Positions 2,191 through 57,681 of a DNA stretch of 64,000 nt are shown piece by piece. Made by a program: the position numbers and the translations under genes. This DNA is from Alphaproteobacteria bacterium (GTDB lineage: Bacteria > Pseudomonadota > Alphaproteobacteria > CAAHEQ01 > UBA3637), in contig JAGCYU010000004.1 in assembly GCA_017960645.1 (NCBI GenBank), positions 7,152-71,151 on the forward strand, in the 5' to 3' direction. Position 1 is the stretch's first letter. Every line of letters begins with the position of its first letter. The notes below the pieces were generated by a model. It was not told the origin of the DNA and ran no database searches. It saw nothing but the letters and a program-made list of their open reading frames with translations.

Positions 2191-3789
2191 TTAAGCCCTT
2201 TCTTGGCGGATTTTTGCTATTAAAGCATTGGTTGAACTATCATGGTTAAGTTGTTGATTTTTATTTTGTAATTCTGGTAAAACTTTTTTAGCCAACTGTT
2301 TTCCCAGTTCAACGCCGAATTGATCAAAAGAATTGATATTCCATAGCACTCCTTGGACAAAAACTTTATGCTCGTACATAGCAATCAATGCCCCAAAGGT
2401 CTTGGGCGTAATTTTGTTAATCAATAAGACATTGCTTGGCCGATTTCCCGTAAATGTCTTATATGGGATTAAGTCTTCATCCACGCCTTCTTCGCGCAAT
2501 TCTTCAGGTGTTTTTCCCTGCATTAAAGCTTCCGCTTGTGCCACAACATTAGATAATAAGATATCATGGTGAGCTCCTGTTTCATTTAAAGAGTGAATAG
2601 GGGCAATAAAGTCCACAGGAATCAAGTGTGTGCCTTGGTGAATCAGCTGATAAAACGAATGTTGCCCATTTGTTCCTGGTTCTCCAAACAAAATAGGACC
2701 AGTTGGGTAAGAAACAGGCTGACCATTCTTATCAACACCTTTGCCATTGGATTCCATATCCAGTTGTTGTAAATAGGCTGGCAGGCGGTGTAAATATTGA
2801 TCATAAGGCAATACCGCATAACTTTCTGCGCCTAAATAATTTACATACCACGCTCCTAATACCCCCAAAACAACAGGTAAATTTTGTTCAAAAGGAGTGC
2901 TTTTAAAGTGCATATCCATTTCATAGGCGCCTTCCAGCATTTGGATAAAGTTATCATATCCAATGCCAATCATTAAACTGAGGCCAATGGCAGACCACAT
3001 CGAATAGCGTCCACCGACCCAGTTCCAAAAAACAAACATATTATCCGGATTGATACCAAATTGCTTCACTGCTTCTGTGTTGGTAGAGACGGCAACAAAA
3101 TGTTTGGCAACAGCGTGATCTCCAAGGGCTTTGACTAACCAATCACGAGCCGTATTGGCATTTGTCATGGTTTCTTGAGTTGTAAAGGTTTTACTGGATA
3201 CAATAAATAAAGTGTTTTCTGGTTCGCATACATGCAAAGTTTCTGAAATATCTGTTCCATCAACATTGCTGACAAAATGAAAGTTGATGTCTTTTGTATG
3301 GTAGAATGCCAAGGCATCTGAGGCCATACTTGGACCTAAATCTGATCCTCCAATCCCGATGTTGACTACATCCTTAATCTTCTTTCCTGTAGCTCCCGAC
3401 CAAGTTCCACTGCGTACTGCATCAGAAAAAATATGCATTTTTTCCAGAACTTGATGAACATCTGGCATGATGTTTCGTTCATCAACAAAAATAGGCTCAT
3501 TTGATCGGTTGCGCAAAGCTGTATGCAAAACAGCTCGATTTTCCGTTGTATTGATTTTTTCACCATTGAACATAGCTTGGATGGCTTTGTCAAGTCCAGA
3601 TTCTTTGGCCCATTGGAACAAAAGGTCCATTGTTTCTTGATCAATCAAATTCTTTGAATAATCCAATAAAAAATCATTAAAGGAAATATGAAATTTATCA
3701 AAGCGTTTGGGATCTTTGTCAAAAGCTTGACGTAAATTAAAACCTTTTATTTTTTTTGCTTTTTGTTGTAACTCAGGAATTATATTCAT
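2191..3789 (-). CDS. pgi: glucose-6-phosphate isomerase
   Basis: 532 aa with a Pgi-family sequence throughout ([11 protein letters not shown], conserved C-terminus). Confidence 0.93.
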
Positions 3790-3935
3790 TTTGTTTCTCC
3801 TTGAGGAATCTTATTGAATTCTGGTGGAATGATAATAGATTGTCCGTTAACAATTTGTGTATCATCCAACGGAGGTTTTTTAGGGCTGCAAGCTGCAGTA
3901 CATGCTAATAAAAATAAACATAATAATATTTTCAT
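3786..3935 (-). CDS. small lipoprotein (49 aa from the internal Met)
   Basis: The [17 protein letters not shown] signal has a lipobox. Its ATG overlaps the lspA stop (ATGA) and its stop overlaps the pgi start. Confidence 0.45.
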
Positions 3936-4378
3936 TTTTTTCTCCTTAGAATTTGTAATAGAATTAATCCTGCTCCTATACAAATGGCACTATCTGCTAT
4001 ATTGAAAGCCGGAAAATGATATTTTTGCCAATAAAAATCCAAAAAATCAATGACTGCACCATAACGCAGTCGATCAAAAACATTTCCCAATGCACCACCT
4101 AATATCATGGCCAGAGCTATTCGTACCAAATGGTCTCTTTCTTGACGTATCATATAAATGATGCCTAAGCAAATAGCAAGAGCCAATCCAATCAATAGCA
4201 TAATACCTAATTCAGAATGGGCTGTGAGCATAGAAAAGCTGACTCCGGAATTATAAGTTAAGTAAAAATTAAAAATAGGCAAAACCTTTATAGGTTCATG
4301 AGCAACCAAATATGTAGTTGCTATCCACTTGGATATAAAATCTAATACAAAAATGAATAGAGAAATCAGATATATCAT
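3932..4378 (-). CDS. lspA: lipoprotein signal peptidase II
   Basis: The LspA membrane topology and the conserved FNIADSAICIG and DFL motifs are present. The likely start is M10 of the tracked ORF, where TAATG overlaps the upstream gene's stop. Confidence 0.85.
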   Translation of the reverse strand: MIYLISLFIFVLDFISKWIATTYLVAHEPIKVLPIFNFYLTYNSGVSFSMLTAHSELGIMLLIGLALAICLGIIYMIRQERDHLVRIALAMILGGALGNVFDRLRYGAVIDFLDFYWQKYHFPAFNIADSAICIGAGLILLQILRRKK

Positions 4379-5106
4379 TAGTAGTCCAGACGAATCCCCT
4401 CCCAATCTGTATGCCCAACATCCGGCACAACTTTAACGACAGCAGATTTAGGATTGTGCATTTTTGATACAAAACGTTCCACCAATCGTCTTGGCGTTAT
4501 TTTATCATCGGATCCAACATAATGTATTTGTGGAATAGTAGAGAGCGTTGCTAAATTATCAGCAGGATTGGTTGCATTGAAAGGAATCAAAATGTCATTA
4601 TAATTGGCATAAGCGCGCGTGTCGGTAATCCCTGCAATGGTAATAACACGAGATACAGGTAGCTTTGAGGCCAATTCCAAAGCAACAACTGCTCCACCAT
4701 CATAACCAATCAGTTCAATAGATGGGGCACGGTATTTGCGTATCAAATATTCTGTTAATTCTTGCATTTCTTGCATGATGTCAGAATCAAATCTGTCTTT
4801 GGCGTAAATATTTGGTTTTGAAGTACAAATTCTGTCTTCGCTCCATTGACATGGTCTGGAGGCATATATGACATTAGGTGTGTCGTCTATTGAAGCAAAA
4901 TATTTGGCCACTTGATAACGCGGGTTGGGATTTCCATCACCTTCTATATATAAACGAAAAGGTTGATCAGGTTGAATGGTGTCCTTTACCCAAACAGCTA
5001 ATGAAAAATGCTCGTTTTGTATTTGGCGTTCCTCAAAACCTTCCGGATTTGGTTTTACAACACAACCTGTTAATAAAAACACCAGCGCAATCAGCATTTT
5101 TTTCAT
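4378..5106 (-). CDS. lipoprotein, putative alpha/beta-fold hydrolase
   Basis: MKKMLIALVFLLTGC signal with lipobox. The start shows an ATGA overlap with the addA stop. Confidence 0.55.
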   Translation of the reverse strand: MKKMLIALVFLLTGCVVKPNPEGFEERQIQNEHFSLAVWVKDTIQPDQPFRLYIEGDGNPNPRYQVAKYFASIDDTPNVIYASRPCQWSEDRICTSKPNIYAKDRFDSDIMQEMQELTEYLIRKYRAPSIELIGYDGGAVVALELASKLPVSRVITIAGITDTRAYANYNDILIPFNATNPADNLATLSTIPQIHYVGSDDKITPRRLVERFVSKMHNPKSAVVKVVPDVGHTDWEGIRLDY

Positions 5107-8100
5107 ATAATTTCCTCCATTTGCATTGTTTGAATCCATAGTAAGTAACTCTTGACCATCTTATCAGGAAAAATTTGTTTTAGCAAGCCTTTATACGCAT
5201 TCAATTGCATTTTATAGGCTGCGGGTATTTCTGAAGGGACGTATCTGTTTGTTTTAAAATCAATAATTAAAACTTCCCTTTCTTTTATAATCAGGCGGTC
5301 AATTTGTCCAGAAATGGGCATGTTGTTCCATTTACCAATGACGGGAACCTCTGCCAATGAATCAGGTCCAAATAATTCTTGGAATTGCGGATTGTGAAAA
5401 ATATCCAACAGATTTGAGGGAAGTTCTATATCTGGTGGCGTCATAAGTTGCAAAATTTCTGACCATTTTTGTGGAGGAATGGTAGGAAGTAGCTGTAATA
5501 ATTGGTGAATAAATGTTCCGCGCTTTAATGCTAACAATCTGTCGGTATCCATAGGCGATGCATTCATGTCATCTATATCTTCTGTTGCAAGTTTGCTTGG
5601 AGATATTGGTGTAGGGACAGTATGTTCTGGAGAAGCTGGCTTATTGACCCAATCTGGTAGTTCATCAAAATCAAATATTTTTTGTTTTTGCACTTTTCTT
5701 TTGGGATCTTTACTTTGTTGTGATGCCCACCTTAAAATAGGTTCTTTGGTTCTACCTGTGACTCCTAGGGCTTGGACAATTAAATCATACCAGTTATTTT
5801 GCATAGCTGGTTTTCGTGGATTATAGCCAGCAATATATAATCTGTCTGAAGCACGAGTTAAGGCCACATATAATAACCGTCTTTTTTCTTGGGCTAATAA
5901 CTCTTGCTGTTTTTGATTTAAATTTTGTGTTTCCGTAACGTGCATTGAAGTACTAGGGACTAACACAGGCAATCCATTTTCTGTCCATATAATGTTTCCC
6001 CCGTGTGACGATTTACTTTCCACACCGCGTGTATCTGGTAAAAAGACGATATTTCCTTGCAATCCTTTACTTCCATGCACAGTCATAATACGTACAGCAT
6101 TTGTGGTGTTTTCCTCTAAATCACGTTTAATTTCTATTTCTTGGTTGTATAACCAATTTAAAAAGCCATATAAAGAAGGGGCCTCTGTTTCTTCAAATTT
6201 AAGGGCTAAATTTAAAAATTCATCTAATGCTTCATTGACTTCTAAGCCCAAACGAGCGATGAAATTTTTTCGTCCGTGAAAAGCCCCTAGAACCGTTGAG
6301 TAAAATTCAAATGGGGGTACCGTATCTGCCAAGTTCATGATTCGCTTTAAAGTATTGGCTGGTTCAGGGAAAAGAGTTTGTACCTGTTGCCATACAGAAG
6401 ATGGACGATTGATACAGGCTTGATATACTTGATCTTCTGTGAATCCAATCAGCGGACTTTTTAATACACAGGCTAAATTCAAATCATTATTTGGTTGTAA
6501 AACAAATTCTGTAAGTGCCATTAAATCTTGAACAGCAATGTAATCTGTAAGATTCATACGATCCACGCCGGCCACAGGAATATGGCGTTTTTGTAAGGCT
6601 TTGACGAAGGGAATCATCATTGGTTGGCGTTTTTGTAGCAAAATTAAAATATCACCCGCTTGAATGGGACGTCCCTGGGATTCCAAGGTGTCGTGCCCAA
6701 TCATACTGGCAATTTTATCCGCAATTTTATCAATTAGTCGTTGCATGGCAGAAGCATTTTCTACACGCTCAACAGGCGGTTTCCAAGGGGGGAGGGTGTC
6801 TTGTGCTTTTGGTTCTTCCAGTGGCCAGATTTCGACCAATCCACCATCTTGAACGCGGTTAACCAGATGGACAGCCTGTTCTTGATTAAATAACACGCCA
6901 TCTTTGGCATTTTGAGATTGCAAAACCGTATTAACAAGTCTTAAAACAGGTTCTGTTGATCGGAAAGAATAATTCAATGGTATGTCCATAAAGGTGTTTT
7001 GAGATTGAACAATTCTTTCTGCAAAATGCTTTTTCATTCTTTCAAACTCAAAAGGATCTGCACCTTGAAAGCTATAGATGGATTGTTTTTTATCGCCGAC
7101 AACAAATAATGTGCGTAACACTTCGGATTTGCCTTCACCAGAGAAGAACTCTTCTGCCAACATTCGGATAATGGCCCATTGATCGGGACTGGTATCTTGT
7201 GCTTCGTCAACTAAAATATGATTTAATCCACCATCTAGTTTAAATAGCACCCATGCGGCCATATCTGAACGTGTTAATAGTTTTTTTGTCTTATCAATCA
7301 AGTCATTATAATCTAAAAAAGCTTGATGTTGCTTGTATATGTCATATTGTTCCAAAACACGATAGGCAATCCTTAAAAATGCACGAGTTAATTGTACAAG
7401 CTCCCATTTTTTCACGTTTTCGTATGTTATATAGGCAGATTCTGCAAGTTCTGGATGTTTTGTTCTTGCAGGAACACTTCCATCTTTATTTAAATAGGTT
7501 TTACAATATTCATTCCATTCTTCATGTTGACAACAAGTTTGGATAATTTCATCTTTCGTTTGCCATTGTTCAATATGCAAATATTGTTTGATAGCAAAAA
7601 TCACACTTTCAATACTGCCTGGATATTTGGATAATAATTGGCTGAGGCGGGAACGTTCAGATAATAAGTTTTTGAACAAAGGAATTAAATTTGTCATAGA
7701 AACGTAGTCGGATAATAATTGAACTTCCGATACTAAACTTTTATCAGCTAAGGTTTTATTTAATATATCCGTTAATATTTCGTTTGTTTTTAAATCATCT
7801 AAAATTTTAAAATGAGGTGGAACGTCTGCTTCCAACGGGAATTGCTTTAGTAATGATTGGCAAAAACTGTGTATGGTCATAATTTTCATCCCGCCGGGAA
7901 TTTGTAAAATCTGGCTGAATAAAGATTTTGCTCGAGTGATTTGGTCTGAATCAGGTGTTTCCTGTGTTAATTCCTGTAAATCTTTGGAAAGGGTTGCTTC
8001 ATCCATAATTGCCCAAGTTTTGAGCTTGTCCGTTAATCGATTACTCATTTCAGCAGCAGCCGCTTTTGTAAAAGTAATGCATAATATTTTATCTGGATTG

Positions 8101-22303: not shown

Positions 22304-22819
22304 ATGAAAAAAATTTTAATCCTATTTGTTTCGTGTTTGTGCGCTCTTAAGGCTTTCGCGGCATCTAATGCAGATGTTGAAGTGTTGGGCGTTTTTGATG
22401 ATTGGTCCGCTTTTTTATACAAAGATGAAGCGGGGCAAGTGTGTTACATGGCTACTGAACCGATAAAATCTCAAGGAAAGTATAATCGCCGAGATGATGT
22501 GTTTTTAATTGTAGCGCACCGTCCAACAGAGCAATCTTTTGATGTTGTGAGTATTAATGCGGGTTATACTTATAGGAAAGGCAGTAAGCCTTATTTAACT
22601 ATTGATAATAATAAACCTATCACATTGGCCGTTTTTAATGACACAGCTTGGGCAAAGGATGATGCAACAGATGCTAAATTGGTTGCCAATATGAAAAAGG
22701 GAACTCGGGCTGTTTTAAAAGGAACTTCTGCTCGGGGAACAGCAACAACTGATACATTTTCTCTTAAAGGCTTTGGTAAGGCTTATCAAGCAATTAATAA
22801 AGCATGCGGCCGCGAATGA
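22304..22819 (+). CDS. invasion-associated locus B (IalB) family secreted protein
   Basis: Signal peptide followed by an IalB-like sequence (WSAFLYKDEAGQVCYMATEP). Confidence 0.7.
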   Translation: MKKILILFVSCLCALKAFAASNADVEVLGVFDDWSAFLYKDEAGQVCYMATEPIKSQGKYNRRDDVFLIVAHRPTEQSFDVVSINAGYTYRKGSKPYLTIDNNKPITLAVFNDTAWAKDDATDAKLVANMKKGTRAVLKGTSARGTATTDTFSLKGFGKAYQAINKACGRE

Positions 22820-32330: not shown

Positions 32331-33134
32331 TTAACTTCTGCTTTTATTGGCTCGGACCTGAGTCATTTTTTGCAGGATATGCCTCATTTTGTTTTGTTGA
32401 TTGGCAACTACTCTCCCATGTTGTTGTATTTGATTGGATTGTTGTTGCATAGCCAAATACAATCCAATTTGATTCGATAAATTTTGATGATATTCATATA
32501 GGGTTGCACGAAAATTTTTCAATAAGTCTTGATCATGAGGTGTTTTGTCCAATTGCTTTAAAAAAGCTTTCATGTTCATTGGGTTTTCCAATACCGCAAT
32601 CAACATGGCTTGTTCTGAACCATCCAGAACTTGGAAAATATTGCTGAGTAATGTTTTGGTCATCCCGTCTAATGGGCTGTCCCCGCCAATGACGTCTAAC
32701 AGTTTTATAAAATCTTGTACTTCTGGACTTTCCTCCCGTTTTTTATAGAGTGCCCACGCATGCTGTGCTTGACGCATCAGCCAAAATGCAGTTACCTTTT
32801 CATAGGGATTAGGCTTTAATTGTATGCCACTTTGAGATAATATAGCTACAAAGTTCTTTTGTTGGGCAGGCGGCATATCCAAAAAAGCTTTTTTAAGTTG
32901 AGAAATTGTTGTACGAGGAACCAGCTGAGCATCCAGTAAGGATAAGCCAGTTTGAATAACATTTTGTGCAACTCCTAAACAAGCCGAACAACGCTGTACT
33001 TTGTTTGCTCCATCTACGCCTAAATAAACCTCAAATTTTTCACAAAAGAAAGGCAAACTTTCCGGCAAAAACAACCTGTTGGCTAAAAAAGGACAATTGC
33101 TTGGACAAGAAGTATTCATTTTTTTTAGTTCCAT
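32331..33134 (-). CDS. hypothetical protein with a 4-Cys N-terminus and Gln-rich C-terminus
   Basis: 267-aa ORF. The CPSNC...C...CSAC cluster may bind metal. I recognise no family. Confidence 0.4.
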   Translation of the reverse strand: MELKKMNTSCPSNCPFLANRLFLPESLPFFCEKFEVYLGVDGANKVQRCSACLGVAQNVIQTGLSLLDAQLVPRTTISQLKKAFLDMPPAQQKNFVAILSQSGIQLKPNPYEKVTAFWLMRQAQHAWALYKKREESPEVQDFIKLLDVIGGDSPLDGMTKTLLSNIFQVLDGSEQAMLIAVLENPMNMKAFLKQLDKTPHDQDLLKNFRATLYEYHQNLSNQIGLYLAMQQQSNQIQQHGRVVANQQNKMRHILQKMTQVRANKSRS

Positions 33135-33160: not shown

Positions 33161-35152
33161 TTAAATATCTAAATTTTCAACAAATTTGGCATGTTCTTGA
33201 ATAAATTGGAAACGATATTCTGGTTTATTTCCCATTAATCTGGATACAATATCTGCTGTATAAGCGGACTCTTCCTGTTCTTCTTCGTCAGATGAAGTTT
33301 TCGAAGGAATCAAAACCTTGAGTAGTGTACGCTTATTAGGATCCATGGTCGTTTCTTTTAGCTGACTTGGTGGCATTTCTCCTAAACCTTTAAAACGGGA
33401 TACTTCAACGTTTTTCCCCTTAAAAGTGGTTGCCAATAGTTTATCTTTTTCTGCATCATCTTGAGCATATATAGATTTATTATCATATGTTAAGCGATAG
33501 AGTGGGGGCAAGGCCAAGAACAAGTGCCCATTTTCAATGAGTTTGGGCATTTCTTGGTAGAAAAAGCTCATCAACAGGCTGGCAATATGGGCGCCATCCA
33601 CGTCGGCATCTGTCATCACAATGACTTTTTCATAACGCAAAGCTTCTTCGTTGTATTTATCGCGTCTGCCACAACCCAAAGCTTCAGTCATGTCTTTGAT
33701 TTCTTCATTAGCTAAAATTTTATCTTGACTGGCAGAAATAACATTCAAAATCTTTCCTCGCAAAGGTAAAATAGCTTGACGCATACGATCACGAGCTTGT
33801 TTGGCAGAACCACCAGCAGAATCTCCTTCCACCAAAAACAACTCTGTTCCCTCCACATTTTTGTGGGAACAATCCGCCAATTTCCCCGGTAAACGTAATT
33901 TTTTTGTGGCACTGGCACGTTGTGTTTCCAATGCTTTTTTGTGGCGGCGACGCTCTTCCGAACGTTCCACAATCCAATCCAGCAAAGCAGATGCAGCCTT
34001 GGTATCATGACTCAACCAATGGTCCAAAGGATCTTTCATCGCATTTTCAACCAGTTTGGTTGCCGATGTTGTCACAAGCCTTTCTTTGGTTTGACCTTGA
34101 AATTGAGGATCACGAATGAAAACAGACAACATAACCCCTGCCGTGTTTAAAATATCGTCTGAGGTAATATCGCTGGCTCGTTTGTTCCCAATCATATCAG
34201 CAAAAGCTTTCAACCCCTTGGTAAGGCATGTTTTCATACCCGTGGTATGCGTACCCCCTAAAGGTGTTACAACAGTATTACAATATGAATATTCAAAAGC
34301 ATCCCCAAAATCATTTGGCCAACAAATTGCCCATTCAACCGCGCCTTGATTGTCTGGAAATTCCACACGACCTGTAAATGGTTTTGGGGTAACAGTAGAA
34401 CGATCTTTCGTTAAATAATCTAAATAATCGGCTATGCCATTTGGAAATTTTAAGACCTGTTCTGATGGTGTTTTTTCATCCCCTTGTAATAATTCTGGAG
34501 CACAGTTCCATCTGACCTCAACGCCGTGGAACAAAAAGGCTTTTTGGCGCGCCATCCGAAATAGGGTGGCAGGTTTAAAATGAATGGATTCACCAAAAAT
34601 GGCTGTATCTGGTAAAAAGCGCACACTTGTCCCACGACGATTAGAAACAGCCCCTAAACATTCTACAGGACCTGTTGGTTTTCCTTGGTGATATTCTTGG
34701 CGGTATAACTTCTTATCTTTTGCAACCTCTATAATCATATGGCTGGATAGAGCGTTTACTGCTGATAAACCGACACCATGCAATCCGCCAGATACTGCAT
34801 ATGCCCCACCGCCAAACTTACCACCAGAGTGCAACGTTGTTGTAATTACTTCTAAGGCAGATTTACCTGGAAACTTTGGATGAGGATCTACAGGAATGCC
34901 GCGCCCATTGTCCTTAACCGTAACATAGTTATCTTTATCCAAAGATACTTCAATATTTGTAGCATAACCGGCAACAGCTTCATCCATGGCATTGTCAATA
35001 ATTTCGGCCACCAAGTGATGATAGGCATGTTCATCTATACCACCGATATACATACCAGGGCGTTTTCGGACAGGCTCTAATCCTTCCAAAACTTCAATGT
35101 CTTTGGCTGAATAGCTTGTTTTTTGTTCTGTTGCCTCGAATAAATCACTCAT
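33161..35152 (-). CDS. parE: DNA topoisomerase IV subunit B
   Basis: GHKL ATPase plus TOPRIM domain (EGDSAGG), in the GyrB/ParE family. The length of 663 aa has no GyrB insert and fits ParE. Confidence 0.85.
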   Translation of the reverse strand: MSDLFEATEQKTSYSAKDIEVLEGLEPVRKRPGMYIGGIDEHAYHHLVAEIIDNAMDEAVAGYATNIEVSLDKDNYVTVKDNGRGIPVDPHPKFPGKSALEVITTTLHSGGKFGGGAYAVSGGLHGVGLSAVNALSSHMIIEVAKDKKLYRQEYHQGKPTGPVECLGAVSNRRGTSVRFLPDTAIFGESIHFKPATLFRMARQKAFLFHGVEVRWNCAPELLQGDEKTPSEQVLKFPNGIADYLDYLTKDRSTVTPKPFTGRVEFPDNQGAVEWAICWPNDFGDAFEYSYCNTVVTPLGGTHTTGMKTCLTKGLKAFADMIGNKRASDITSDDILNTAGVMLSVFIRDPQFQGQTKERLVTTSATKLVENAMKDPLDHWLSHDTKAASALLDWIVERSEERRRHKKALETQRASATKKLRLPGKLADCSHKNVEGTELFLVEGDSAGGSAKQARDRMRQAILPLRGKILNVISASQDKILANEEIKDMTEALGCGRRDKYNEEALRYEKVIVMTDADVDGAHIASLLMSFFYQEMPKLIENGHLFLALPPLYRLTYDNKSIYAQDDAEKDKLLATTFKGKNVEVSRFKGLGEMPPSQLKETTMDPNKRTLLKVLIPSKTSSDEEEQEESAYTADIVSRLMGNKPEYRFQFIQEHAKFVENLDI

Positions 35153-35607
35153 TAATGCCTCACAGTGCTATCTTGACCGCCTGCGTTATAGCGTCCAAAA
35201 TTTTCCGCCAATTGCTCTAAGACAGACAGCTCTTTACCCCCAACTTTGGTAATATCGGTATCATAGGTTACCTTATTCCCATCAGCCAAGGTCAATAGTT
35301 TTTTGTCTGTCAATACACCTTTCGTATCAAATGTATATACGTGAATGACACGTTCTGTTACCTCTGGATCAAAGAAAATGCGGCTGGATTTTTTGGCTTG
35401 AGCGTAAAAAATCACATCTCCAATGCCTTCCTTGGGATCAGATTGATAATTAGGTGTCCCCAACACACGCAAGACTTTTTCTTTGGTGTCCCCCACACGA
35501 ATAGCATCCAAACGCCGCGTATCCGGCAGATCGCTGTTTTGAAAATTTTCCAATCCGCATGCTGATATCATTAACAGGCATAAACAAATAATAAGTTTCT
35601 TGACCAT
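35152..35607 (-). CDS. lipoprotein, BamE/SmpA-OmlA-like
   Basis: MVKKLIICLCLLMISACG lipobox followed by a GDTKEKVLRVLGTPN motif. Confidence 0.5.
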   Translation of the reverse strand: MVKKLIICLCLLMISACGLENFQNSDLPDTRRLDAIRVGDTKEKVLRVLGTPNYQSDPKEGIGDVIFYAQAKKSSRIFFDPEVTERVIHVYTFDTKGVLTDKKLLTLADGNKVTYDTDITKVGGKELSVLEQLAENFGRYNAGGQDSTVRH

Positions 35608-35662
35608 TTTGCTCCTTCTGGTTATAATATCTATATCATATAGAAAAGGAAGGGCTTCGTCA

Positions 35663-36166
35663 ATGAAAAAAAACACATCCGGCATAAAAAAAACTTTAAT
35701 GATTGGAGCAATTGGTCCAGATGGGTGGCAAGGTGAGTTTGAAGCAACAGCTGAGGAATGCACGATTGTCGCCCAACGTTTGGATATTCCTAAGGTTGTT
35801 CAGTTACATGCTGTTGTACAGGTTGATTTCCAAGATGACTTAATAAGAGTGTCAGGGCATTTGCTTGCAGATTTAAAGCGTCAATGTGTTGTGACTTTAA
35901 ATATATGCAATGAGCATTTGGATACTGATTTTGAAGCGTTGTTTTCCGAAAATGTGCCTGTGTCGGGAAAAGAAATCGAGATGAAGGAGGCTGTAGAGAC
36001 TTTAGATAGAGGCTGTTTAGATTTTATGAATATTTTGACTGAGCAGGTGGGGTTGTTAATGAATCCATTTCCTAAAAAACAAGGGGTCAAAGGAGATTAT
36101 ATTGAATTTTCTGATGAAGAAAATAAACCGTTTGCCAATTTGAAAAATATCATAAAAAAGGATTGA
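35663..36166 (+). CDS. YceD/DUF177 family protein
   Basis: The conserved Cys pair is spaced as in DUF177. The gene sits upstream of rpmH, as in many bacteria. Confidence 0.6.
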   Translation: MKKNTSGIKKTLMIGAIGPDGWQGEFEATAEECTIVAQRLDIPKVVQLHAVVQVDFQDDLIRVSGHLLADLKRQCVVTLNICNEHLDTDFEALFSENVPVSGKEIEMKEAVETLDRGCLDFMNILTEQVGLLMNPFPKKQGVKGDYIEFSDEENKPFANLKNIIKKD

Positions 36167-40637: not shown

Positions 40638-41117
40638 TTATTTTTCTTCACACAGCGCATAATAGAGGGTTGTACTATTTCGCTTTGGGATAAATACAGA
40701 GTCTTGTACTGCAAAATTTTTCTCCTGTGATGCCGCTAAATTCGTCCAACCTCTTTTTTGACCTAATGTATTTTTCATATTAGGGCAAGCGACTCCTTCA
40801 AGCGTCTGTGTATTAGGGCAGGTAGAATCAAAACTAGCCAACTTTCCCCCGATAGCATCACACCAAGTAAAGGCAGACCACCAATTCATTTTGTTTTCAC
40901 CCACACAAAACTTCTTGCCATTACAATTGTTGGTCAGGTTTGGGTCGTTAGGGTCATTGCACAGACCACCTTTATCCAAGTTGTTGCCGTTGGCATCGGT
41001 GCCATATTTATTGGCTGTGATAATTGTGCCGCCATAGGTGGTGCAGTTGGACCAAAAATCTGCTTGAGCCACTCCCGCCATTAAAACAAGAGTTAATAAT
41101 ATTACATGCTTTTTCAT
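40638..41117 (-). CDS. secreted C-type-lectin-like domain protein
   Basis: Signal peptide MKKHVILLTLVLMAGVAQA. CTLD signature WWSAFTWCDAIGGKLASF ... LYYALCEEK, plus extra Cys in the N-terminal half. Confidence 0.55.
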   Translation of the reverse strand: MKKHVILLTLVLMAGVAQADFWSNCTTYGGTIITANKYGTDANGNNLDKGGLCNDPNDPNLTNNCNGKKFCVGENKMNWWSAFTWCDAIGGKLASFDSTCPNTQTLEGVACPNMKNTLGQKRGWTNLAASQEKNFAVQDSVFIPKRNSTTLYYALCEEK

Positions 41118-41567
41118 TTTCTTTTTCCCCTTTCGTTTCTTGTAAAAATACTTGTCATTTTTTTTCTCCAAAACGCAGCAAAACTTTGCGAGGTTCCCCG
41201 AGCATTAGTTTTACCGGTTCCGGCTGTCCCTCAAACCTATGTTACATAAAGGTACCTTTTTGTAACGCTTTTGGACAAAAAAATGGGGAAAATAGAAAAA
41301 CTTGACGAACATATTGAAATAATTGAAAAATATAGGAAATTTAGAAAACATCAAAAATATGAAAAAAGTGCAAAAAATGTGAAAAAAACGCTTGCAATTA
41401 AAGGTACCTTTTTTTGCTACTCGATTTTGGCACTTAACCCGTTGTATTCATTGAAAAATAAATTTTTCATTTTTGGCCCAAAAATCGGTCATTTTGTTAC
41501 CTTTTTTTGGGGAAAATGTGGATTTATAAAAAAATATCCTGGCATTTTTCTAGCATTTATGTTTTAG

Positions 41568-43712: not shown

Positions 43713-44204
43713 TTAAAAAAACGGGGTGTATGCCCATTGTAAGAGGGCTTGCCGTTGCTTTGGACGACATGTGATGTCAAAGGGCAGACAGTTTTTATGG
43801 ATTTGGATGACGTGTCGTTTAAAGCTTTTCCAACGCCGAATTTGGATAGCATCGATATCTGGTATCCTGCGCCCCATATAGTAACGGCAATACCATTGAA
43901 ACCATCCGCGTGGGTCTGGGCCGATAATCCAACCTCGATTGCGCCATTCTTGCAAAGACATGCGTGATTTTACACGAAAATAATTCAGTTTTATATTGGG
44001 TTTCTTTAAGGATAGTTTGGCTCCTGCAAACCAATCTTTTGGAAATTCATTCTGGCAATCGGTCATGTAGTGACCTTCAAACACCCCTAATTGCAGCATT
44101 TGTTTTGGCGTTAATTGTGGTTGAAAGTCGGGGGCAAAATCTGCTCCCATCGGTGCAACATATTCATAACTATAGCATTTTTGCATTTTATCGTTGACAA
44201 TCAT
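43713..44204 (-). CDS. conserved hypothetical protein (Trp/Arg-rich motif RGWFQWYCRYYMGRR)
   Basis: 163-aa ORF with no signal peptide. I cannot assign a family. Confidence 0.4.
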   Translation of the reverse strand: MIVNDKMQKCYSYEYVAPMGADFAPDFQPQLTPKQMLQLGVFEGHYMTDCQNEFPKDWFAGAKLSLKKPNIKLNYFRVKSRMSLQEWRNRGWIIGPDPRGWFQWYCRYYMGRRIPDIDAIQIRRWKSFKRHVIQIHKNCLPFDITCRPKQRQALLQWAYTPFF

Positions 44205-47692: not shown

Positions 47693-48469
47693 ATGACAGA
47701 CGCAATTAAACCAATTTTTCCAAATGCAGTCACGATGATGGCTTTAGCTTTTGGGGTCTCTTCTATCAATATGGCTTTATGGGGCAGATGGGAATTGGCT
47801 GTCCTGTTTATCGTTTTGGCAGGATTCTTTGATTTTATGGATGGGCGTGTAGCACGTGCTTTGGATGTATCATCCCATTTTGGAGCAGAACTGGATTCCT
47901 TAAGTGATTTTGTCAGCTTTGGTGTTGCTCCTGGATTTTTAATGTACAATTGGACAATGGACACAACGATGCGAGCGGAAGCATTAAAAGATATTACCTA
48001 TCGCACTGATGCTGTGGGCCTATATTGGGGGGTCGTTTTGTTTTTTGCTGTATGTTGTGCCACACGTTTGGCACGCTTTAATACAATGTTAAATGAACGT
48101 CAACCAAAATATTGGACTCATTTTTTTATGGGTGTTCCAGCGCCTGCCGGTGGTGGTTTGGCTATGTTACCGCTTATTATGTGGATGGCTACAGGTGGGC
48201 AAGTAGCTTTATTTAGAGCGCCTTGGTTTGTTAGTTGTTTCGTTATTTTTGCGGGGGTAATGATGGCCAGTCGTATACCGACCTTATGCTTAAAACATTT
48301 ACATCCTAATCGATCCATGCGTTCTATTTTAATGTTTGTAATGTTAGCTTTAATCTGTGGCTTTGCAACATTGCCATGGCAAACGCTGAGTGTCGTCGGA
48401 GTCGGGTATTTAATATCCATCCCAATCGGCATATTTTATTTCTTGCATTTTAAAAAAAATTGTGGTTGA
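47693..48469 (+). CDS. pssA: CDP-diacylglycerol--serine O-phosphatidyltransferase
   Basis: CDP-alcohol phosphatidyltransferase motif DFMDGRVARAL...GAELDSLSD. Confidence 0.88.
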   Translation: MTDAIKPIFPNAVTMMALAFGVSSINMALWGRWELAVLFIVLAGFFDFMDGRVARALDVSSHFGAELDSLSDFVSFGVAPGFLMYNWTMDTTMRAEALKDITYRTDAVGLYWGVVLFFAVCCATRLARFNTMLNERQPKYWTHFFMGVPAPAGGGLAMLPLIMWMATGGQVALFRAPWFVSCFVIFAGVMMASRIPTLCLKHLHPNRSMRSILMFVMLALICGFATLPWQTLSVVGVGYLISIPIGIFYFLHFKKNCG

Positions 48470-48495
48470 ATGACCTTATAAGAGGGGGAAAGCGT

Positions 48496-49065
48496 ATGAA
48501 ATACATTAGTCTTTTTGCTTTATTATTAGGAACATCTATGATGGCCACAGCGGCTGTTGTTCCAACGGCTTCTATGCCTAAAACGCCAGTTCAAGTAGTG
48601 GACACCAGTCGTAAGGAAATTATTGTAGATGTGCCGGAACAGCTGAATTATGCAGAAGAATTAAAAAATCCAAGATTTAATAATTTGCGGCAATTTCAAG
48701 GAATGGAAGATGCAAAATATGTACGTAACGTAGCAAAAATGCTGCGTGATAACCCTGCAGCTTTAATGAAAAGCGTTTATAATATAGATGCCAGTGCTGT
48801 AGATATCAGCGCCTATGACGGGAAGAAGGCTTTAGGAACAAACAGAGAGCCTATTGGCGTGACAATGGGTGATAAAAGTATTAAAGATATGAATTGGGTT
48901 GATTCTTTGGCAGATGTTCGGTTCCCAGATTTTATGGGTGACTATAATGATTTGCGTACGTTGCAGGGTGAATTTCGTGACCAGCAACAAAAAGGGTTGG
49001 AAGAAATTAAAAAAATTGATTTGAAGAAAAAAGTACGCATGGCTCCAATTCAACAGGCACTATGA
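48496..49065 (+). CDS. secreted hypothetical protein
   Basis: Signal peptide MKYISLFALLLGTSMMATAA. I recognise no family. Confidence 0.45.
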   Translation: MKYISLFALLLGTSMMATAAVVPTASMPKTPVQVVDTSRKEIIVDVPEQLNYAEELKNPRFNNLRQFQGMEDAKYVRNVAKMLRDNPAALMKSVYNIDASAVDISAYDGKKALGTNREPIGVTMGDKSIKDMNWVDSLADVRFPDFMGDYNDLRTLQGEFRDQQQKGLEEIKKIDLKKKVRMAPIQQAL

Positions 49066-49871: not shown

Positions 49872-51578
49872 ATGGTTTATTTAACAATTTTATTAACAAT
49901 TTTAATAAGTATTTTGATTTACACGTTTGATCCGGCTCCAAACAGGTCTGAACACGATATAACCGGCGCTGAAGCGTATGTTTTAGGATTTATCAACCAA
50001 CACCAAGCCGCCCGCGACTTTATGAAGCATTGGTTAGGGCATAGTAAGGCTAATGACGGCGCACATGGTGTTGTTGGCGGGAAAGGCGTTATATTATCTG
50101 GGGATACAGATCCTGGAACAGAACAAGGGCGTATGGAAAGTTTTATGCTCAAGGGATTAACCTCAAATATACACACTTATAATGGGAGTGGATTTGCAAC
50201 TGGTTCAGATAACGGGACCTTTAAATCTGCTTATGTGTGTTTGGATGAGCATTTAGAAAACCTGGTTGCTGAAACAAATTGCCGAAATCGTTATGTTGTG
50301 ACGTATGCAAAAGATAAACCGGATTGGTGGACAGATCCAAAAGAGCAGGAAAAAAAGGCCACAAAAGGTCAACGGTGGCGGCGTGCCATTGCTCAACGAA
50401 CTCATGGATCGTATGGGTGCGGTGTATTAACTATGGCCGACGGGACAGGAAGCAAAAATTGGTGTTATAAAACCGGTAAGAAGAACACAATCAAACCCAA
50501 AGAGAGTTCATGTGCCACGGGCGAACGTGAGGGGAAATATTGCATTGACAATGGCGAAGGATGTCAGACTTTGCTGCCCTCTGGAATTCAAGTATTCTTG
50601 GAAAATGAAATAAATAATGATTTAAGTGATAGACTGGTGTGTATCAGCACGGTAAAAAATCCCTATGTTACAGAAGGATTAATGTTCCAATATGATTCCA
50701 TCGATAGTGCGGGAAATGGAGCGCCTGCCGCAAATGGGACTAATCTTACGACGCATTCCTCTCCCTTTACTTGGGCGAATTCGGAAGTGGGAACCCCTGT
50801 CAATTGGAATGCATCCGGCTCTCCAACATGGGAAGATAGCTCAAAAAGTTCCCCTATGATTCCACATAACAACGGACATGCCTTTAATTTTCAATTGGGA
50901 AATAATGATTCTACATTTACTTTGACTATAGTAGCAAAGGTTCCAAATAAAACTGCCCAGACAATCATAGGTCCTGTTACCCCATCAGGACTAAATATTC
51001 CTGATTTAACCGTTGATGATGGCGCTGGTAATAAGAAAAAAGCAAATATTGGGATGTATTATATGAATGATTGTTCAATAGCAAGTGAAGGCGCGGTTAC
51101 TGGGGATTGTTTTTTGCTCTTGACCAGAAAAGATGCCAGCCATGCGGATACAATTGATGGAAACATCATTAGCTATGATAATAATAATAATGGAATAATA
51201 TCGTGGACAATTGTCAAGCGTCCTGATCTTGATGGAATTTCAACGCTTTATTGGTATAACGGAGCAGAGCCGGTGTGTGATAGTGGTAGTGAAGTAGTAA
51301 AACACCCCTATATAGATGGAGGGGGAACGCGAAACAATATGACTTTAGGGGGGGGATCTGGCGGTAGTGCAGATGATACTGTCAGAATTTATGCCATACG
51401 GTATTACAATCGCCCCTTGACAAGGCGGGAAATCAACCGTAACTTCCGTGCAGATGGGGAACGATATGGCGTCGGCAGTTGGACGGGGAGCTGTACCAAC
51501 AAATGCGAGGTAGATTCGGATTGTTTGAATACATATCAAAGTTGCAAAAGTGGCGAATGCAAAATAAAGGATGAATAA
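49872..51578 (+). CDS. membrane-anchored surface protein with LamG-like (concanavalin-type) domain and Cys-rich C-terminal tail
   Basis: N-terminal hydrophobic anchor. DTVRIYAIRYYNRPLTRREINRNF matches the LamG hallmark strand (RIYNRALSAxEI). The tail reads CTNKCEVDSDCLNTYQSCKSGEC. Confidence 0.6.
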   Translation: MVYLTILLTILISILIYTFDPAPNRSEHDITGAEAYVLGFINQHQAARDFMKHWLGHSKANDGAHGVVGGKGVILSGDTDPGTEQGRMESFMLKGLTSNIHTYNGSGFATGSDNGTFKSAYVCLDEHLENLVAETNCRNRYVVTYAKDKPDWWTDPKEQEKKATKGQRWRRAIAQRTHGSYGCGVLTMADGTGSKNWCYKTGKKNTIKPKESSCATGEREGKYCIDNGEGCQTLLPSGIQVFLENEINNDLSDRLVCISTVKNPYVTEGLMFQYDSIDSAGNGAPAANGTNLTTHSSPFTWANSEVGTPVNWNASGSPTWEDSSKSSPMIPHNNGHAFNFQLGNNDSTFTLTIVAKVPNKTAQTIIGPVTPSGLNIPDLTVDDGAGNKKKANIGMYYMNDCSIASEGAVTGDCFLLLTRKDASHADTIDGNIISYDNNNNGIISWTIVKRPDLDGISTLYWYNGAEPVCDSGSEVVKHPYIDGGGTRNNMTLGGGSGGSADDTVRIYAIRYYNRPLTRREINRNFRADGERYGVGSWTGSCTNKCEVDSDCLNTYQSCKSGECKIKDE

Positions 51579-51596: not shown

Positions 51597-53561
51597 ATGA
51601 AATACGATTTAAAAACAGAACGCAAAGATGAATCCGGCGCAATTATGTTGGAAATTATTGCCGTTTTGGCTTTAATGGGTGTTATGGGGGCAATGTTGTT
51701 CCGCCAGATCAATCACCGTAACCAAGAATTGCACAATATTCAAATGGCATCTGAAGCTCGTATTATGAAGGAAGCTTTTTCTGCATGGATTCAAGCCAAC
51801 TTGGCCACTTTACGTAGAGATTGCAGAGCTGAATCTACAATCGATGTTATACCGTGTTCCATAAATTATTCTGCTCAATATGGGTCTACTGCAATCGGAC
51901 AAGCAATTGTTAATGATGGTTTTTTACCGGATGGTTATGATGGAAGTGGAGTCTATGCAGATAGCATAGCTTATGACTATAATCTCAGTTTGTTTTCTTA
52001 CTGGCGCGGAAACGCCACAAGCGGTGCCCCAGCATATTATGGTGTTGTCATTCCAAACCCGAATATTTTGCCAGATGGCGGGGGGGAAACAACGACATGG
52101 AACTTTAAGCGCGCAGCACGTGTTGCCATGTTAATCGGTGGCGATGGGGGTGTGTATGGCCCTGATATTACGGGGGACTCTTTATCTGGAAGTGCCGGCA
52201 GCTGGCAGTTAGACACAAAAACTGGTAGCACTTTACTTTTTATGACATCTGATCAAGCCCAATTGCCTATCTATGGTGCGGTGACGGGGTTTGATGTGTA
52301 TCAACCCGAAGTAGAAGTTGAAGATGTTAAAGTGAATATTCCAAAAGACTTTGGAATGGTGGTCAGGGATCTTGGATCCTATGGAGCATTTGCCGTGGGA
52401 ATGGGTGATGCAAATTGTTATGATAGTCGTATTCAGCATCATACAGCATTAGGAGATGGCACCATTAACCCTGATACTGTTAAAATACCAAAAAATGATG
52501 GGTCTTGTCAGGCTGTGTTGTGGGTGGATGGCGCAGATTCTAAAGTTTATACCAGTAAAGATATTGAGGTTGGCTATGATCCCGTGACTGGGGCTTCATC
52601 CGTCAGTATTAAAGGCGAAAGTGATAAAGCGGGAAAAGTTATCGTGTATGATGATCAAGGTCGTGCCAATATTATCTTAGAGGGCAAAACAGATGCAAGT
52701 ACAAGCACCGCCGCCAATACTTTAACCTTTAAGGATGGTAAGATTTTAACAAATAAGACCACGGGAAATGTAGGGGCAACAGGAAGCCAAGAGCAATATC
52801 AATACCAACTGGATCCTGCTAATACATCCGTTGTGTATGATATTCGTTTGGGTGCTATGGGTGGCATGAAACTGAGTGAACTTTTGCCAGACGTGATTTT
52901 GAAAGATGTGGGACGCATTAGTTCAGGAGGAAGGGTGACTAAGCCTTCTTGTCCAAAGGGATATGTTCCCGCCATTTTAGTGATCCCAGGTCATCAAACT
53001 CCGCGAGTAGCGGAAGGAAGTGCTGCACCTCAGATATTGCTACCTAACTCTAGCGATCCTAACAGTCCTGTGATCGGATATTTACGGCCGCCACAGTTAA
53101 AAATAAAAGATTCGGAGGATCAAGAGATTGTTAATCTTGGTACTGACCCCGCTTATACTCCAATATTCGCACAAGAGCCTACTCCAAAAGAGAGTGCGGC
53201 TGTATCGGAATGGACTATTAGCGGTTCGTCTACTACTTATCTACGTTACATTGCCTATCAAACGTTTTGTGTGAAAGATGGGACAATTGGTGCAGCCAGC
53301 GGAAATGACGTTCAGAATTTGAACAGCACAACCAAAGTGGGTACTGCATCCACATCTTTAACTGCAACGGATTGTGCCACTATGGGATTTGATTTCAGTT
53401 CAGGGAAGTGTGTTGTATGGACTTTGAACCACATCAATGCTGTGGCGGATGCCGAACAAAAAGAAAAACTTTGCCGGAGTGCAGGGTACTTTTGGGATGA
53501 CAAAGAAACCGGTAGTAATAAATGTAAAACTGCAAAGCCAAGCCAGCAACAGGGTGACTAA
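51597..53561 (+). CDS. large (654 aa) prepilin-like protein with class III signal
   Basis: The leader MKYDLKTERKDESG is followed by AIMLEIIAVLALMGVMGAML with Glu at +5. The body is long, Gly/Thr-rich and extracellular-like, and the C-terminus is Cys-containing. Confidence 0.6.
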   Translation: MKYDLKTERKDESGAIMLEIIAVLALMGVMGAMLFRQINHRNQELHNIQMASEARIMKEAFSAWIQANLATLRRDCRAESTIDVIPCSINYSAQYGSTAIGQAIVNDGFLPDGYDGSGVYADSIAYDYNLSLFSYWRGNATSGAPAYYGVVIPNPNILPDGGGETTTWNFKRAARVAMLIGGDGGVYGPDITGDSLSGSAGSWQLDTKTGSTLLFMTSDQAQLPIYGAVTGFDVYQPEVEVEDVKVNIPKDFGMVVRDLGSYGAFAVGMGDANCYDSRIQHHTALGDGTINPDTVKIPKNDGSCQAVLWVDGADSKVYTSKDIEVGYDPVTGASSVSIKGESDKAGKVIVYDDQGRANIILEGKTDASTSTAANTLTFKDGKILTNKTTGNVGATGSQEQYQYQLDPANTSVVYDIRLGAMGGMKLSELLPDVILKDVGRISSGGRVTKPSCPKGYVPAILVIPGHQTPRVAEGSAAPQILLPNSSDPNSPVIGYLRPPQLKIKDSEDQEIVNLGTDPAYTPIFAQEPTPKESAAVSEWTISGSSTTYLRYIAYQTFCVKDGTIGAASGNDVQNLNSTTKVGTASTSLTATDCATMGFDFSSGKCVVWTLNHINAVADAEQKEKLCRSAGYFWDDKETGSNKCKTAKPSQQQGD

Positions 53562-56642: not shown

Positions 56643-57572
56643 TTAATATGAAAAAGCAAACTCATTTTTTGGGGGACGTTCCTTTTCAATATCCTCTGCA
56701 GCAAAATAGTCATAAGCATATGCTCTGATATCTACAAGAGCAATCATGGCATTATAGGCAGTTCCAAACATTTGAACTTTCATAAATGCCTTTTGCGGAT
56801 CCCCCCAAATCATATTTTGAGCATCATCAGGATGCCCATAAGTATTATAGATAGCGGCCCAAAACTCCCTTTGACGTTGTAATTTTTTTTGCGTGTTGAT
56901 GGTCGTAAAGTTGAGTGAGCTATCCCCATAGTTGTAATAGATAATTTTATACAATTCATTGGACGTATTATGACTGGTAAAGAAAAGGGAAATAGCTTCG
57001 TTTTTGCCTCGCGTCATATCAATTTGAGATATGTAGGATTGACGCTCAGCTCGGGCAAAATTTCTGATGCAAGAACGTAAATCTTGTGGAACATAAACGC
57101 CTTGCTTTTGACAACGATTGGCGTAATCAGAAGCATAAAACCTGGGAACATCTTCTTGTTTGAGTTTTAACGTATATCCGGCTTGTTCCGCTTGCTCTAA
57201 TGTTTCTTCTACAGACATGCCCAAATAAAAGCCATGTACGTCAAAACCATGCACATTATGAAGTGGAATGTTTGATGGATTAGCAGATGCTCCGTTAACA
57301 ACATGGGTTGTTTGATCTGGCAAATTTATCACAGAAGAAGGTGTTGTTTCTTGTGCCAGTTGCTCTGGCTCAGATGGAACAACAGGTTCGGGTTGCGTTA
57401 AATCAATCGTAACATCTGGTAAAGGTGGCGGGGTCAAATGCAATTGTTCTAAAGGTTTTGCCCCAGAGCCTAATAGAGGTTGTTCATCATCAAACAAAGA
57501 AATATTAACATTCTGAGCTTGTGCTATAGATGAGATTAACAAGCTTAAAAAAAGTATTCCATTGAACCTCAT
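56643..57572 (-). CDS. secreted hypothetical protein with Pro-rich linker
   Basis: Signal peptide MRFNGILFLSLLISSIAQA at an internal Met. I recognise no family. Confidence 0.45.
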   Translation of the reverse strand: MRFNGILFLSLLISSIAQAQNVNISLFDDEQPLLGSGAKPLEQLHLTPPPLPDVTIDLTQPEPVVPSEPEQLAQETTPSSVINLPDQTTHVVNGASANPSNIPLHNVHGFDVHGFYLGMSVEETLEQAEQAGYTLKLKQEDVPRFYASDYANRCQKQGVYVPQDLRSCIRNFARAERQSYISQIDMTRGKNEAISLFFTSHNTSNELYKIIYYNYGDSSLNFTTINTQKKLQRQREFWAAIYNTYGHPDDAQNMIWGDPQKAFMKVQMFGTAYNAMIALVDIRAYAYDYFAAEDIEKERPPKNEFAFSY

Positions 57573-57681
57573 ACTCGCATACGCCCCCAATTTTTTACTT
57601 GACTTTTGATGTAAATTCAGGTCAAATAACCCTAACTTGTTATTAGTTGTAGCTAAAATATTTGGAAAAATCAAGGGAAAA

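Follow-up and report, generated by a model that had tools for sequence, protein, structure and literature searches.

A predicted compact C-type-lectin-like protein with a hypervariable face and a probable upstream invertible switch in an uncultured alphaproteobacterium

C-type-lectin-like domains (CTLDs) are most abundant in metazoa, and the C-type lectin (CLec) fold is known as a scaffold that tolerates massive variation. Paralogous variable surface proteins with conserved 5' regions are represented by the vlp/vsp proteins of Mycoplasma and by the Borrelia lipoprotein families with upstream homology boxes. Invertible promoters have been described in gut Bacteroidales (PMC8748976), and phase variation has been reviewed (PMC11868660). 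The CTLD fold, the targets of diversity-generating retroelements (DGRs) and invertible DNA segments (invertons) are each already known. Here, we analysed a 64,000-nt stretch of contig JAGCYU010000004.1 from an Alphaproteobacteria bacterium (hereafter the window, meaning this whole stretch), and in particular the gene at 40638–41117 (minus strand, stop included), supported by the open reading frame (ORF) list and its translation, 71 homologues and a structural model. We consider it reasonably probable that its product is a Sec-exported, Ca-independent, compact CTLD protein belonging to a repertoire with a variable binding face, and that the gene lies behind an invertible switch.

The ORF starts with the ATG at 41117, preceded by a Shine-Dalgarno sequence (GGGGA, 41130–41126), and ends with TAA (40640–40638), giving a product of 159 aa, to which all residue numbers refer. 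A preliminary description, made from the sequence alone, had located the gene exactly, and both motifs quoted in it were found, WWSAFTWCDAIGGKLASF at residues 79–96 and LYYALCEEK at the C-terminal end (residues 151–159). In the six-frame translation of the 64 kb, W..A...C...G..L.S is matched a single time, and in 200 residue shuffles it is never matched. The existence of 71 homologues (E ≤ 0.01) and of a syntenic orthologue indicates that the gene is real; in this orthologue, the mature protein is identical except at an indel site (a 7-residue gap with one adjacent substitution), and the signal peptide is different. The Sec signal claimed previously is also present: residues 1–19 (MKKHVILLTLVLMAGVAQA; 41061–41117, minus strand) read as a classical signal peptidase I (SPase I) type signal peptide with n, h and c regions, an A-Q-A cleavage site followed by DFW, and no lipobox cysteine. 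The signal peptide segment is helical with a low predicted local distance difference test (pLDDT) score in the structural model and varies among the paralogues, and the cleavage region (A-x-A/DFW) is conserved. The 5' leader, between the ATG and the proximal recombination site described below (41118–41240, minus strand), includes the Shine-Dalgarno sequence and differs in length and sequence by lineage (about 30 nt in lineage 3). No paralogue was found elsewhere in the window.

The structure predicted with AlphaFold2 (AF2) from the family alignment had a pLDDT of 83.2 and a predicted template modelling (pTM) score of 0.76, with pLDDT values above 90 over residues 21–40 and 61–100, and showed the β1-α1-(α2)-β2-β3-β4-β5 topology of CTLDs. 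Foldseek returned only CTLDs among the 50 best matches (with weak E-values, 4e-3 or worse), and the neighbours in the structure search were Ca-independent, mostly protein-binding CTLDs: natural killer receptors (KLRG1, Ly49, CD72, LLT1), Bd2740 and intimin. The eukaryotic CTLD structures matched were no more than 20% identical. According to the authors of its structure, the Bd2740 domain has a modified C-type lectin fold without a Ca site, like that of phage Mtd (PMC10769870). A phmmer search of the window protein against the PDB gave sub-threshold matches only, with the α1 motif weakly similar to codakine (E 0.36) and to the DEC-205 carbohydrate-recognition domains (CRDs). A broad profile (alignment A6) built from 69 diverse members matched the mosquito C-type lectin mosGCTL-3 at E 3.4e-4, and its weaker matches were nearly all C-type lectins (DEC-205, CLEC4F, PLA2R, CD69, Bd2740, TC14, LLT1, langerin). 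Among the same 69 relatives, the Pfam models Lectin_C, Xlink and Lcl_C were touched by 12, 3 and 2 sequences, respectively, all below threshold; for Lectin_C (PF00059), a weak match was obtained in only one of the 59 close relatives, and the best E-value was 4.1e-4. The window protein itself does not belong to Lcl_C/DUF1566 by its hidden Markov model (HMM). With the Pfam route having failed, we based the CTLD assignment on the AF2/Foldseek fold and the broad A6 profile, from which the protein is predicted to be a compact, disulfide-rich CTLD. The earlier assignment to the CTLDs thus holds for the fold, with which the predicted structure agrees, and for the C1/C4 motif; the protein has no Lectin_C match and no Ca/sugar site. 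A DUF333 match (3 of the 59 members, E 0.01) was dropped, as it was not reproduced by the N-terminal module alone.

The compact CTLD core (residues 73–159; 40641–40901, minus strand) consists of β1, α1, β1', a CP..CPN loop and β2–β5, in which α1 corresponds to WWSAFTWC, β1' to KLASF and β5 to ALCEE, β2 contains W124, and the disulfide-stapled CP..CPN loop replaces α2. In the broad alignment, the order of the elements is a signal peptide, a C-x(13-15)-FC hairpin, xMNWWSAFxWC (α1), GGxLA (β1'), CP...CPN, W(T/S) (β2), A..V..SG... and ALC(E) (β5). C86 and C156 correspond to the canonical C1 and C4, at the end of the 'WxxAxxxC' α1 helix and in the 'C-E' of β5, a pairing read from the sequence; C86 is invariant and C156 conserved in at least 90% of the 59-sequence alignment, and both are invariant in the 69-sequence alignment. 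The place of the C2–C3 disulfide is taken by an invariant local pair, C100/C111, which staples the loop following a 4-residue helix, a reduced α2. The β2 tryptophan (W124, 'GWT') is kept in at least 90% of the 69-sequence alignment, and the remainder of the WIGL motif is not conserved. Upstream of the core, an N-terminal hairpin (C25...C71; 40902–41060, minus strand) carries a Cys-rich insertion (residues ~36–66, including C53 and C65, which are expected to pair), and its cysteines C25 and C71 occupy the position of the C0–C0' pair of long-form CTLDs. Minimal relatives have only the C-x(13-15)-FC hairpin, and the window lineage has about 30 residues more (alignment A6), so the N-terminus resembled a separate module; when modelled alone, this module gave a pLDDT of 74 and a pTM of 0.43, and it had no match in the PDB or Pfam. 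A motif of the insertion, ANxYGxDKGGLCNDPNDxNL (within residues 20–72, 40902–41060), resembles the repeat HPKGGSSNPPNDTNL of the galactose-binding β-trefoils MytiLec/CGL and of the designed protein Mitsuba-1. This likeness was rejected: it amounts to 8.5 bits per repeat, the E-value is inflated by the three identical designed repeats, and the key histidine of HPKGG is not conserved.

The 71 close homologues are all unnamed or annotated as 'hypothetical', and their sole taxon label is that of 'Alphaproteobacteria bacterium' metagenome-assembled genomes (MAGs). An exhaustive HMMER search (E ≤ 1e-3) extended the family to at least 498 clusters at 50% identity, all of them small signal-peptide proteins from metagenomes or MAGs. 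To judge from these searches, the family is unannotated (it has neither a name nor a model in Pfam or NCBIfam) and is known from metagenomes only. The window subfamily belongs to uncultured gut/rumen Alphaproteobacteria, with at least six copies in one MAG (J6Y85_ locus tags). One metagenome from the Joint Genome Institute (JGI) provided 14 loci, and a protein-based scan of JGI data provided 26; only one locus was found in the GTDB representative genomes and no relatives in the IMG/VR viral contigs, and one human-gut species-level genome bin (SGB) MAG carries a family member. We take the sample labels to be SPIRE-style and to derive from a ruminant gastrointestinal study. The copies are scattered singly amid unrelated housekeeping genes and are occasionally paired (L011, L026).

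Variation within the family is concentrated in a hypervariable segment (residues ~115–152; 40662–40775, minus strand), comprising β2, β3 and β4 with their loops, which we presume to be the ligand-binding face. Column entropy was about 0.5 bits at residues 21–40, 51–70 and 81–90, and 2.8–3.1 bits at residues 131–150; mean pairwise identity fell from 74% in the N part through 60% in the middle to 30% in the C part. The identities of the N and C parts were uncorrelated (r = 0.014, 1431 pairs), and P0001 and P0003, for example, have identical N parts and C parts that are 28% identical. Comparison of the window with the syntenic contig L004 (pairwise DNA alignment A2) showed both flanks and the 3' two-thirds of the gene to be 100% identical, the difference being a block of about 310 nt, including a 21-nt indel, that begins about 120 nt 5' of the ATG and extends to codon ~66 (L004 4860–5200). 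This mosaic tract (leader, signal peptide and first ~66 codons; 40923–41235, minus strand) begins right after the proximal recombination site, and its protein (mature residues 18–114) is 85% identical to P0002, which also has the TDANGNN insertion. The block looks like a conversion tract from a P0002-like paralogue, the pattern expected of recombination or gene conversion, and the variable region is identical in two strains with differing 5' ends. In the KWG sub-lineage (P0046, P0054, P0064, P0068, P0069), over-long gene calls run through an upstream repeat (...CHPEA.AEGS....RFFTAFRMT...), which looks like a different palindromic repeat element.

One distant member, P0080 (E 2.6e-25 against the family profile; aligned over the full length at 33% identity, E 4e-21, in BLASTP against the window protein), is encoded within a complete DGR cassette (3001–5431 of contig L042). 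The cassette contains the P0080 gene with a variable repeat (VR, 3343–3447), a template repeat (TR, 4814–4909) on the opposite strand, a reverse transcriptase (RT) with an RVT_1 domain (3504–4799, minus strand) and a bAvd gene (5075–5431, minus strand). The RT carries IGNLTSQ and YVDD, typical motifs of DGR RTs. The last ~105 nt of P0080, the VR, recur as the TR, in inverted orientation, between avd and the RT gene. All ten substitutions between VR and TR in the coding part (10/10) fall at TR adenines, where the TR reads AAC AAC AAC; the two repeats also differ by a 9-nt indel and two changes past the stop codon. P0080 is, judging from this cassette, a genuine DGR target. Its VR encodes ALYVNLSSGAVTYYNRDGSLYGGSALCE, which aligns with residues 134–157 of the window protein, in the centre of the hypervariable segment. 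Since the DGR of this homologue diversifies the same segment, the hypervariable segment of the window protein may be regarded as its ligand-binding face, and this is the best available argument for such a role.

The paralogue loci share about 415 nt of upstream non-coding DNA and the first ~290 nt of the coding sequence (window ~41533–40828). Within the upstream DNA, a perfect 12-bp palindrome, AAAGGTACCTTT, is present at 41248–41259 and 41400–41411, the sole exact copies in the 64 kb, for which 0.2 matches with up to one mismatch would be expected by chance. Each copy is the centre of a longer near-palindrome: a gene-proximal site of 26 bp (GTTACAAAAAGG-TA-CCTTTATGTAAC; 41241–41266, core GGTACC at 41251–41256) and a gene-distal site of 24 bp (GCAAAAAAAGG-TA-CCTTTAATTGC; 41394–41417, core GGTACC at 41403–41408). 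The proximal site is conserved at all 24 paralogue loci with enough upstream DNA, each of which has exactly two boxes, spaced by 127 nt or by 145–146 nt, and the box was found nowhere else in 45 loci; an exact search for the proximal box in the JGI metagenomes gave no match. The KWG sub-lineage and the loci L003 and L023 have no GGTACC boxes. The 146-bp segment between the cores (41257–41402), which we predict to be the invertible switch, has the majority orientation in the window, designated A. The homologous segment is in orientation A at 22 of the 24 loci and is exactly reverse-complemented (orientation B) at L012 and L013, with both outer flanks direct. The two orientations were observed at the same locus, in different samples, in two cases, both from a sister lineage (L012 versus L036/L037; L013/L040 versus L021). 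Between L012 and L037, the 145-nt switch is 97.9% identical and inverted, and the 2193 nt downstream are 99.0% identical and direct; between L013 and L021, the 126-nt switch is 100% identical and inverted, with 93.4% identity in direct orientation over the 1968 nt downstream. The presence of both orientations at two related loci identifies the homologous segment as an invertible switch, and from its intact sites and this homology we infer that switching also occurs at the window locus.

The same repeat is used at many loci, implying one shared recombinase. Many of the metagenome contigs begin 2–24 nt from a GGTACC box (L002, L006, L009, L022, L028, L036, L037, L038), as expected of assemblies interrupted by a repeat or by a switch of mixed orientation. 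Contig L011 (1887–3468) contains two divergent family genes 622 nt apart, with one switch each. The minus-strand copy of this contig has the non-palindromic cores GGGACC and GGTCCC, in which the central dinucleotide co-varies and the inverted repeat is preserved. Inspection by eye suggests that, in all three lineages, the sequence across the proximal junction would read TTGCAA-17 nt-TAAC(A/C)T in orientation B and GTWACA-16 nt-TAAC(A/C)T in orientation A. A Lys-rich small ORF inside the switch (41283–41567, plus strand) was rejected as a gene, as it has no Pfam match and neither its frame nor its presence is conserved across lineages. The remaining ~115 nt of the upstream unit, distal to the switch (41418–41533, minus strand), are conserved across paralogue loci and lineages (for example TCAATGAATACA; blastn between loci, alignment A5) and may serve as an accessory site or an insulator. 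At 41474–41491 (plus strand), a terminator-like hairpin was flagged.

Several of our observations weigh against this overall interpretation. A Sec signal by itself would guarantee the periplasm at most, and not export beyond it. Pfam and NCBIfam found nothing in the window protein, even at E ≤ 10, so the Lectin_C/CTLD HMM search proposed in the preliminary description came back empty; the narrow profile of 59 close homologues reached no CTLD in the PDB, the pLDDT of the AF2 model falls to 69–70 for residues 131–150, the variable part, and the C2–C3 disulfide is absent, neither the window protein nor the family consensus having any cysteine between residues 112 and 155. As for the switch, inversion was seen in the sister lineage only, all copies of the window lineage being in orientation A, and at the window locus itself the three assemblies (window, L004 and L005) all have this orientation. 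No recombinase was found among the ~50 window ORFs scanned, and a scan for consensus promoters performed at the level of chance (3 found, 3.1 expected). An invertase shared by several sites is often encoded at a distance from them.

The same evidence has to be weighed under other explanations. If the palindromes were only operators for a transcription factor, with the inversions as rare accidents of homologous recombination between inverted repeats, their extended form, which looks like that of dimer-binding sites, and the single orientation of the window-lineage copies would be accounted for. Twelve bp are, however, too short for efficient homologous recombination, whereas exact inversion occurred at two separate loci with breakpoints within the 6–12-bp core; moreover, the co-varying GGGACC/GGTCCC cores retain the inverted-repeat relation in one paralogue, and contigs break at the boxes. 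We therefore consider the operator explanation unlikely. Alternatively, the protein might work in the periplasm as a decoy, an inhibitor or an immunity factor, directed for instance at lysozymes or at toxins that attack peptidoglycan, and its paralogues might track diverse attackers. With an SPase I signal and nothing else to direct sorting, a protein would by default stay in the periplasm; small size, disulfide richness, multiple copies and hypervariability also fit, as do the neighbouring cell-envelope genes (glycosyltransferase, Amidase_2). Even so, the paralogues are dispersed one by one, surrounded by unrelated housekeeping genes and lacking an effector partner, no PDB match lies outside the CTLDs, and ON/OFF phase variation would be unusual for immunity genes, which are needed constantly; to this explanation, too, we attach a low probability. 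An active DGR target, in which the C-terminal variation is now made by a retroelement elsewhere in the genome, would be consistent with the true DGR-target homologue having its VR in the same place and with the conserved ALCEE 3' end, which could act as an anchor resembling the initiation of mutagenic homing (IMH) sequence. By contrast, no TR-like copy of the 3' 193 nt of the gene was found in the 64 kb, and no RT or Avd was found among the ~50 ORFs scanned. Among the variable parts of the window subfamily there are indel differences, as well as the residues K, Q, E, M and W, which are unobtainable by adenine mutagenesis of AAC codons; there is no NNC bias, C at third positions having a frequency of 0.15 in the variable part (N part, 0.28; P0080, 0.39); and two strains that differ at their 5' ends share an identical variable region. 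The window subfamily, as far as its sequences tell, shows no DGR footprint, and we regard an active DGR as very unlikely here.

The preliminary description had proposed mimicry or binding of host glycans, or horizontal acquisition. In favour of host-glycan binding by a classical Ca2+-dependent C-type lectin, one can cite the CTLD fold, the weak likeness of the α1 motif to codakine and the DEC-205 CRDs, and the MytiLec/Mitsuba-like motif of the N-terminal insertion, a weak match of ~8.5 bits per repeat. A regular-expression scan for the Ca-binding motifs EPN, QPD and WND nevertheless found none in the 59 family sequences, apart from one unrelated QPN in P0060 (position 99). Also missing is the long loop from which the Ca/sugar site is built: β2 (122–130) and β3 (133–138) are joined by two residues in the model, and the core has ~87 residues versus 108–157 for most of the matched CTLD chains. 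A Ca-dependent glycan lectin is therefore unsupported, and with it the proposed mimicry or binding of host glycans. The nearest structures are, moreover, Ca-independent, protein-binding CTLDs (PMC10769870), and conservation is lowest in the putative binding face, a poor fit to a fixed sugar site; a classical lectin is, in our view, distinctly unlikely. Recent acquisition of a eukaryotic CTLD, as host mimicry, would be in line with the abundance of these domains in metazoa and with the ankyrin-repeat proteins encoded at 15651–17963, which suggest contact with eukaryotes. We found no sign of such a transfer. The gene belongs to a large metagenomic family of small signal-peptide proteins (the ≥498 clusters described above), the best eukaryotic matches are no more than 20% identical with E ≥ 3e-4, the GC content of the gene (41.5%) is normal for the window (39.3%), and the gene is homologous to a bacterial DGR target. 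This origin is extremely unlikely.

Our preferred interpretation remains that of a repertoire of exported binding proteins behind invertible switches. According to this proposal, the scaffold (residues 20–114) would be kept similar among the copies by recombination, and specificity would be carried by the C-terminal β2–β4 face (residues ~115–152), which is almost completely different in each copy. The family would thus constitute a repertoire of binding proteins of differing specificity, encoded in the genome rather than generated by mutagenesis, and its members are probably phase-variable. Their likely targets would be proteins or surface structures of the host, prey, phage or neighbouring cells. 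A site-specific recombinase encoded elsewhere would invert the 127–146-bp segment between the AAAGGTACCTTT-centred sites, leading to phase-variable expression. As a best guess, a TTGCAA-17 nt-TAACAT promoter arises at the proximal junction when the segment is flipped, in which case the window copy, in orientation A, would be OFF or expressed at a low level. A host-, protist-, phage- or neighbour-facing role is plausible because the family is hypervariable, multi-copy and switchable. More tentatively, the family may be a DGR-independent descendant or sister of the CLec-fold DGR targets, in which about a dozen fixed variants, with their own small switches, a shared recombinase and shuffled scaffolds and 5' regions, form a combinatorial, phase-variable repertoire that is secreted or surface-located; we would not yet put this evolutionary scenario at even chances.

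The gene is flanked by housekeeping genes, on one side by rnpA, yidC, engB and mnmE, the last of these convergent and ending 7 nt away, and on the other by a divergent GT4 glycosyltransferase gene and an Amidase_2 gene. The window also encodes two tandem ankyrin-repeat proteins of 381 and 385 aa (15651–16796 and 16806–17963, minus strand), a feature uncommon in free-living bacteria that points to interaction with eukaryotic cells, and a homologue of IalB (invasion-associated locus B; 22304–22819, plus strand). These proteins also make an outward-facing role of the CTLD protein plausible. The window is otherwise dense in housekeeping genes (mutL, pgi, lspA, addA/B-like, secB, tsaD/E, mnmG, parC/parE-like, glycogen phosphorylase, clpB-like, mlaA/C). 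Two adjacent large ORFs (49872–51578 and 51597–53561, plus strand; 568 and 654 aa) had no Pfam match at E ≤ 1e-5, and Pfam matches were also lacking for ORFs of 163–343 aa at 43713–44204, 56643–57674, 35152–35763, 32331–33134, 4378–5139 (minus strand) and 48460–49065 (plus strand); the first of these (43713–44204, minus strand) is conserved in the syntenic contig L004. A search of the whole 64 kb with Rfam found no family at the gathering score, tRNA and rRNA included.

These results turn an anonymous 'hypothetical protein' into a member of a defined family that lacks a Pfam or NCBIfam model. Searches of the literature for an inverton or a CTLD family of this kind returned nothing specific, and the family itself (≥498 clusters), its compact architecture with the hairpin insertion and the split between a DGR branch and a branch of paralogues with switches appear to be new, as far as the literature was searched. 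The C-type lectin fold would again serve as a variation-tolerant binding scaffold in bacteria, and one homologous family would combine two mechanisms of diversity, DGR mutagenesis in one branch and paralogues with invertible switches in the other; if true, this would be a natural example of two alternative routes to the diversification of one protein fold. The tempting inference from a bacterial CTLD to eukaryotic mimicry or glycan binding needs correcting, as such a domain need not imply either. Phase variation, and interactions with host, phage or neighbours, can be studied in uncultured gut/rumen Alphaproteobacteria by way of these recombination sites, of the variable face and of the junction promoter that is predicted here.

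Among known systems, Ca-independent or compact CTLDs include KLRG1, Ly49, CD72 and LLT1, the fibre tip of Bdellovibrio Bd2740, the D3-type domains of intimin/invasin and the Link module. Unlike these, the window protein is a free-standing, exported protein of 140 aa rather than the tip of a fibre, autotransporter or receptor stalk; its α2 is cut to a short helix with the stapled CP..CPN loop, and it has a Cys-rich hairpin insertion, no C2–C3 disulfide and no Pfam match. With the CLec-fold variable proteins of DGRs (Bordetella phage Mtd, TvpA and the DUF1566/Lcl_C type), it shares homology, through the DGR target P0080, and a hypervariability limited to the C-terminal part of the CTLD, before a conserved end, which is the position of the VR. 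It differs from them in that the window contains no TR, RT, Avd or adenine footprint, and the diversity resides in fixed paralogues shuffled by recombination rather than in retrohoming.

The upstream region resembles the invertons of Bacteroides capsule and surface loci, of E. coli (fimS) and of C. difficile, in which a short segment flanked by inverted repeats lies directly 5' of the gene for an exported protein, and, as in the Bacteroides loci under a shared invertase, one repeat is common to many loci of the family. The layout of the sites, 12 bp + 2 bp + 12 bp with an A-tract, is presumably similar to that of the hix/gix sites of the serine invertases Hin and Gin. Unlike known invertons, however, this predicted switch belongs to a family of CTLD paralogues in an uncultured alphaproteobacterium, and its core is itself palindromic (GGTACC) in most copies. 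Finally, as in the Mycoplasma vlp/vsp and Borrelia families, the region of the promoter, leader and signal peptide is homogenised across dispersed copies and the distal coding part is variable, but the fold and the switching mechanism are different, and the proteins are not lipoproteins.

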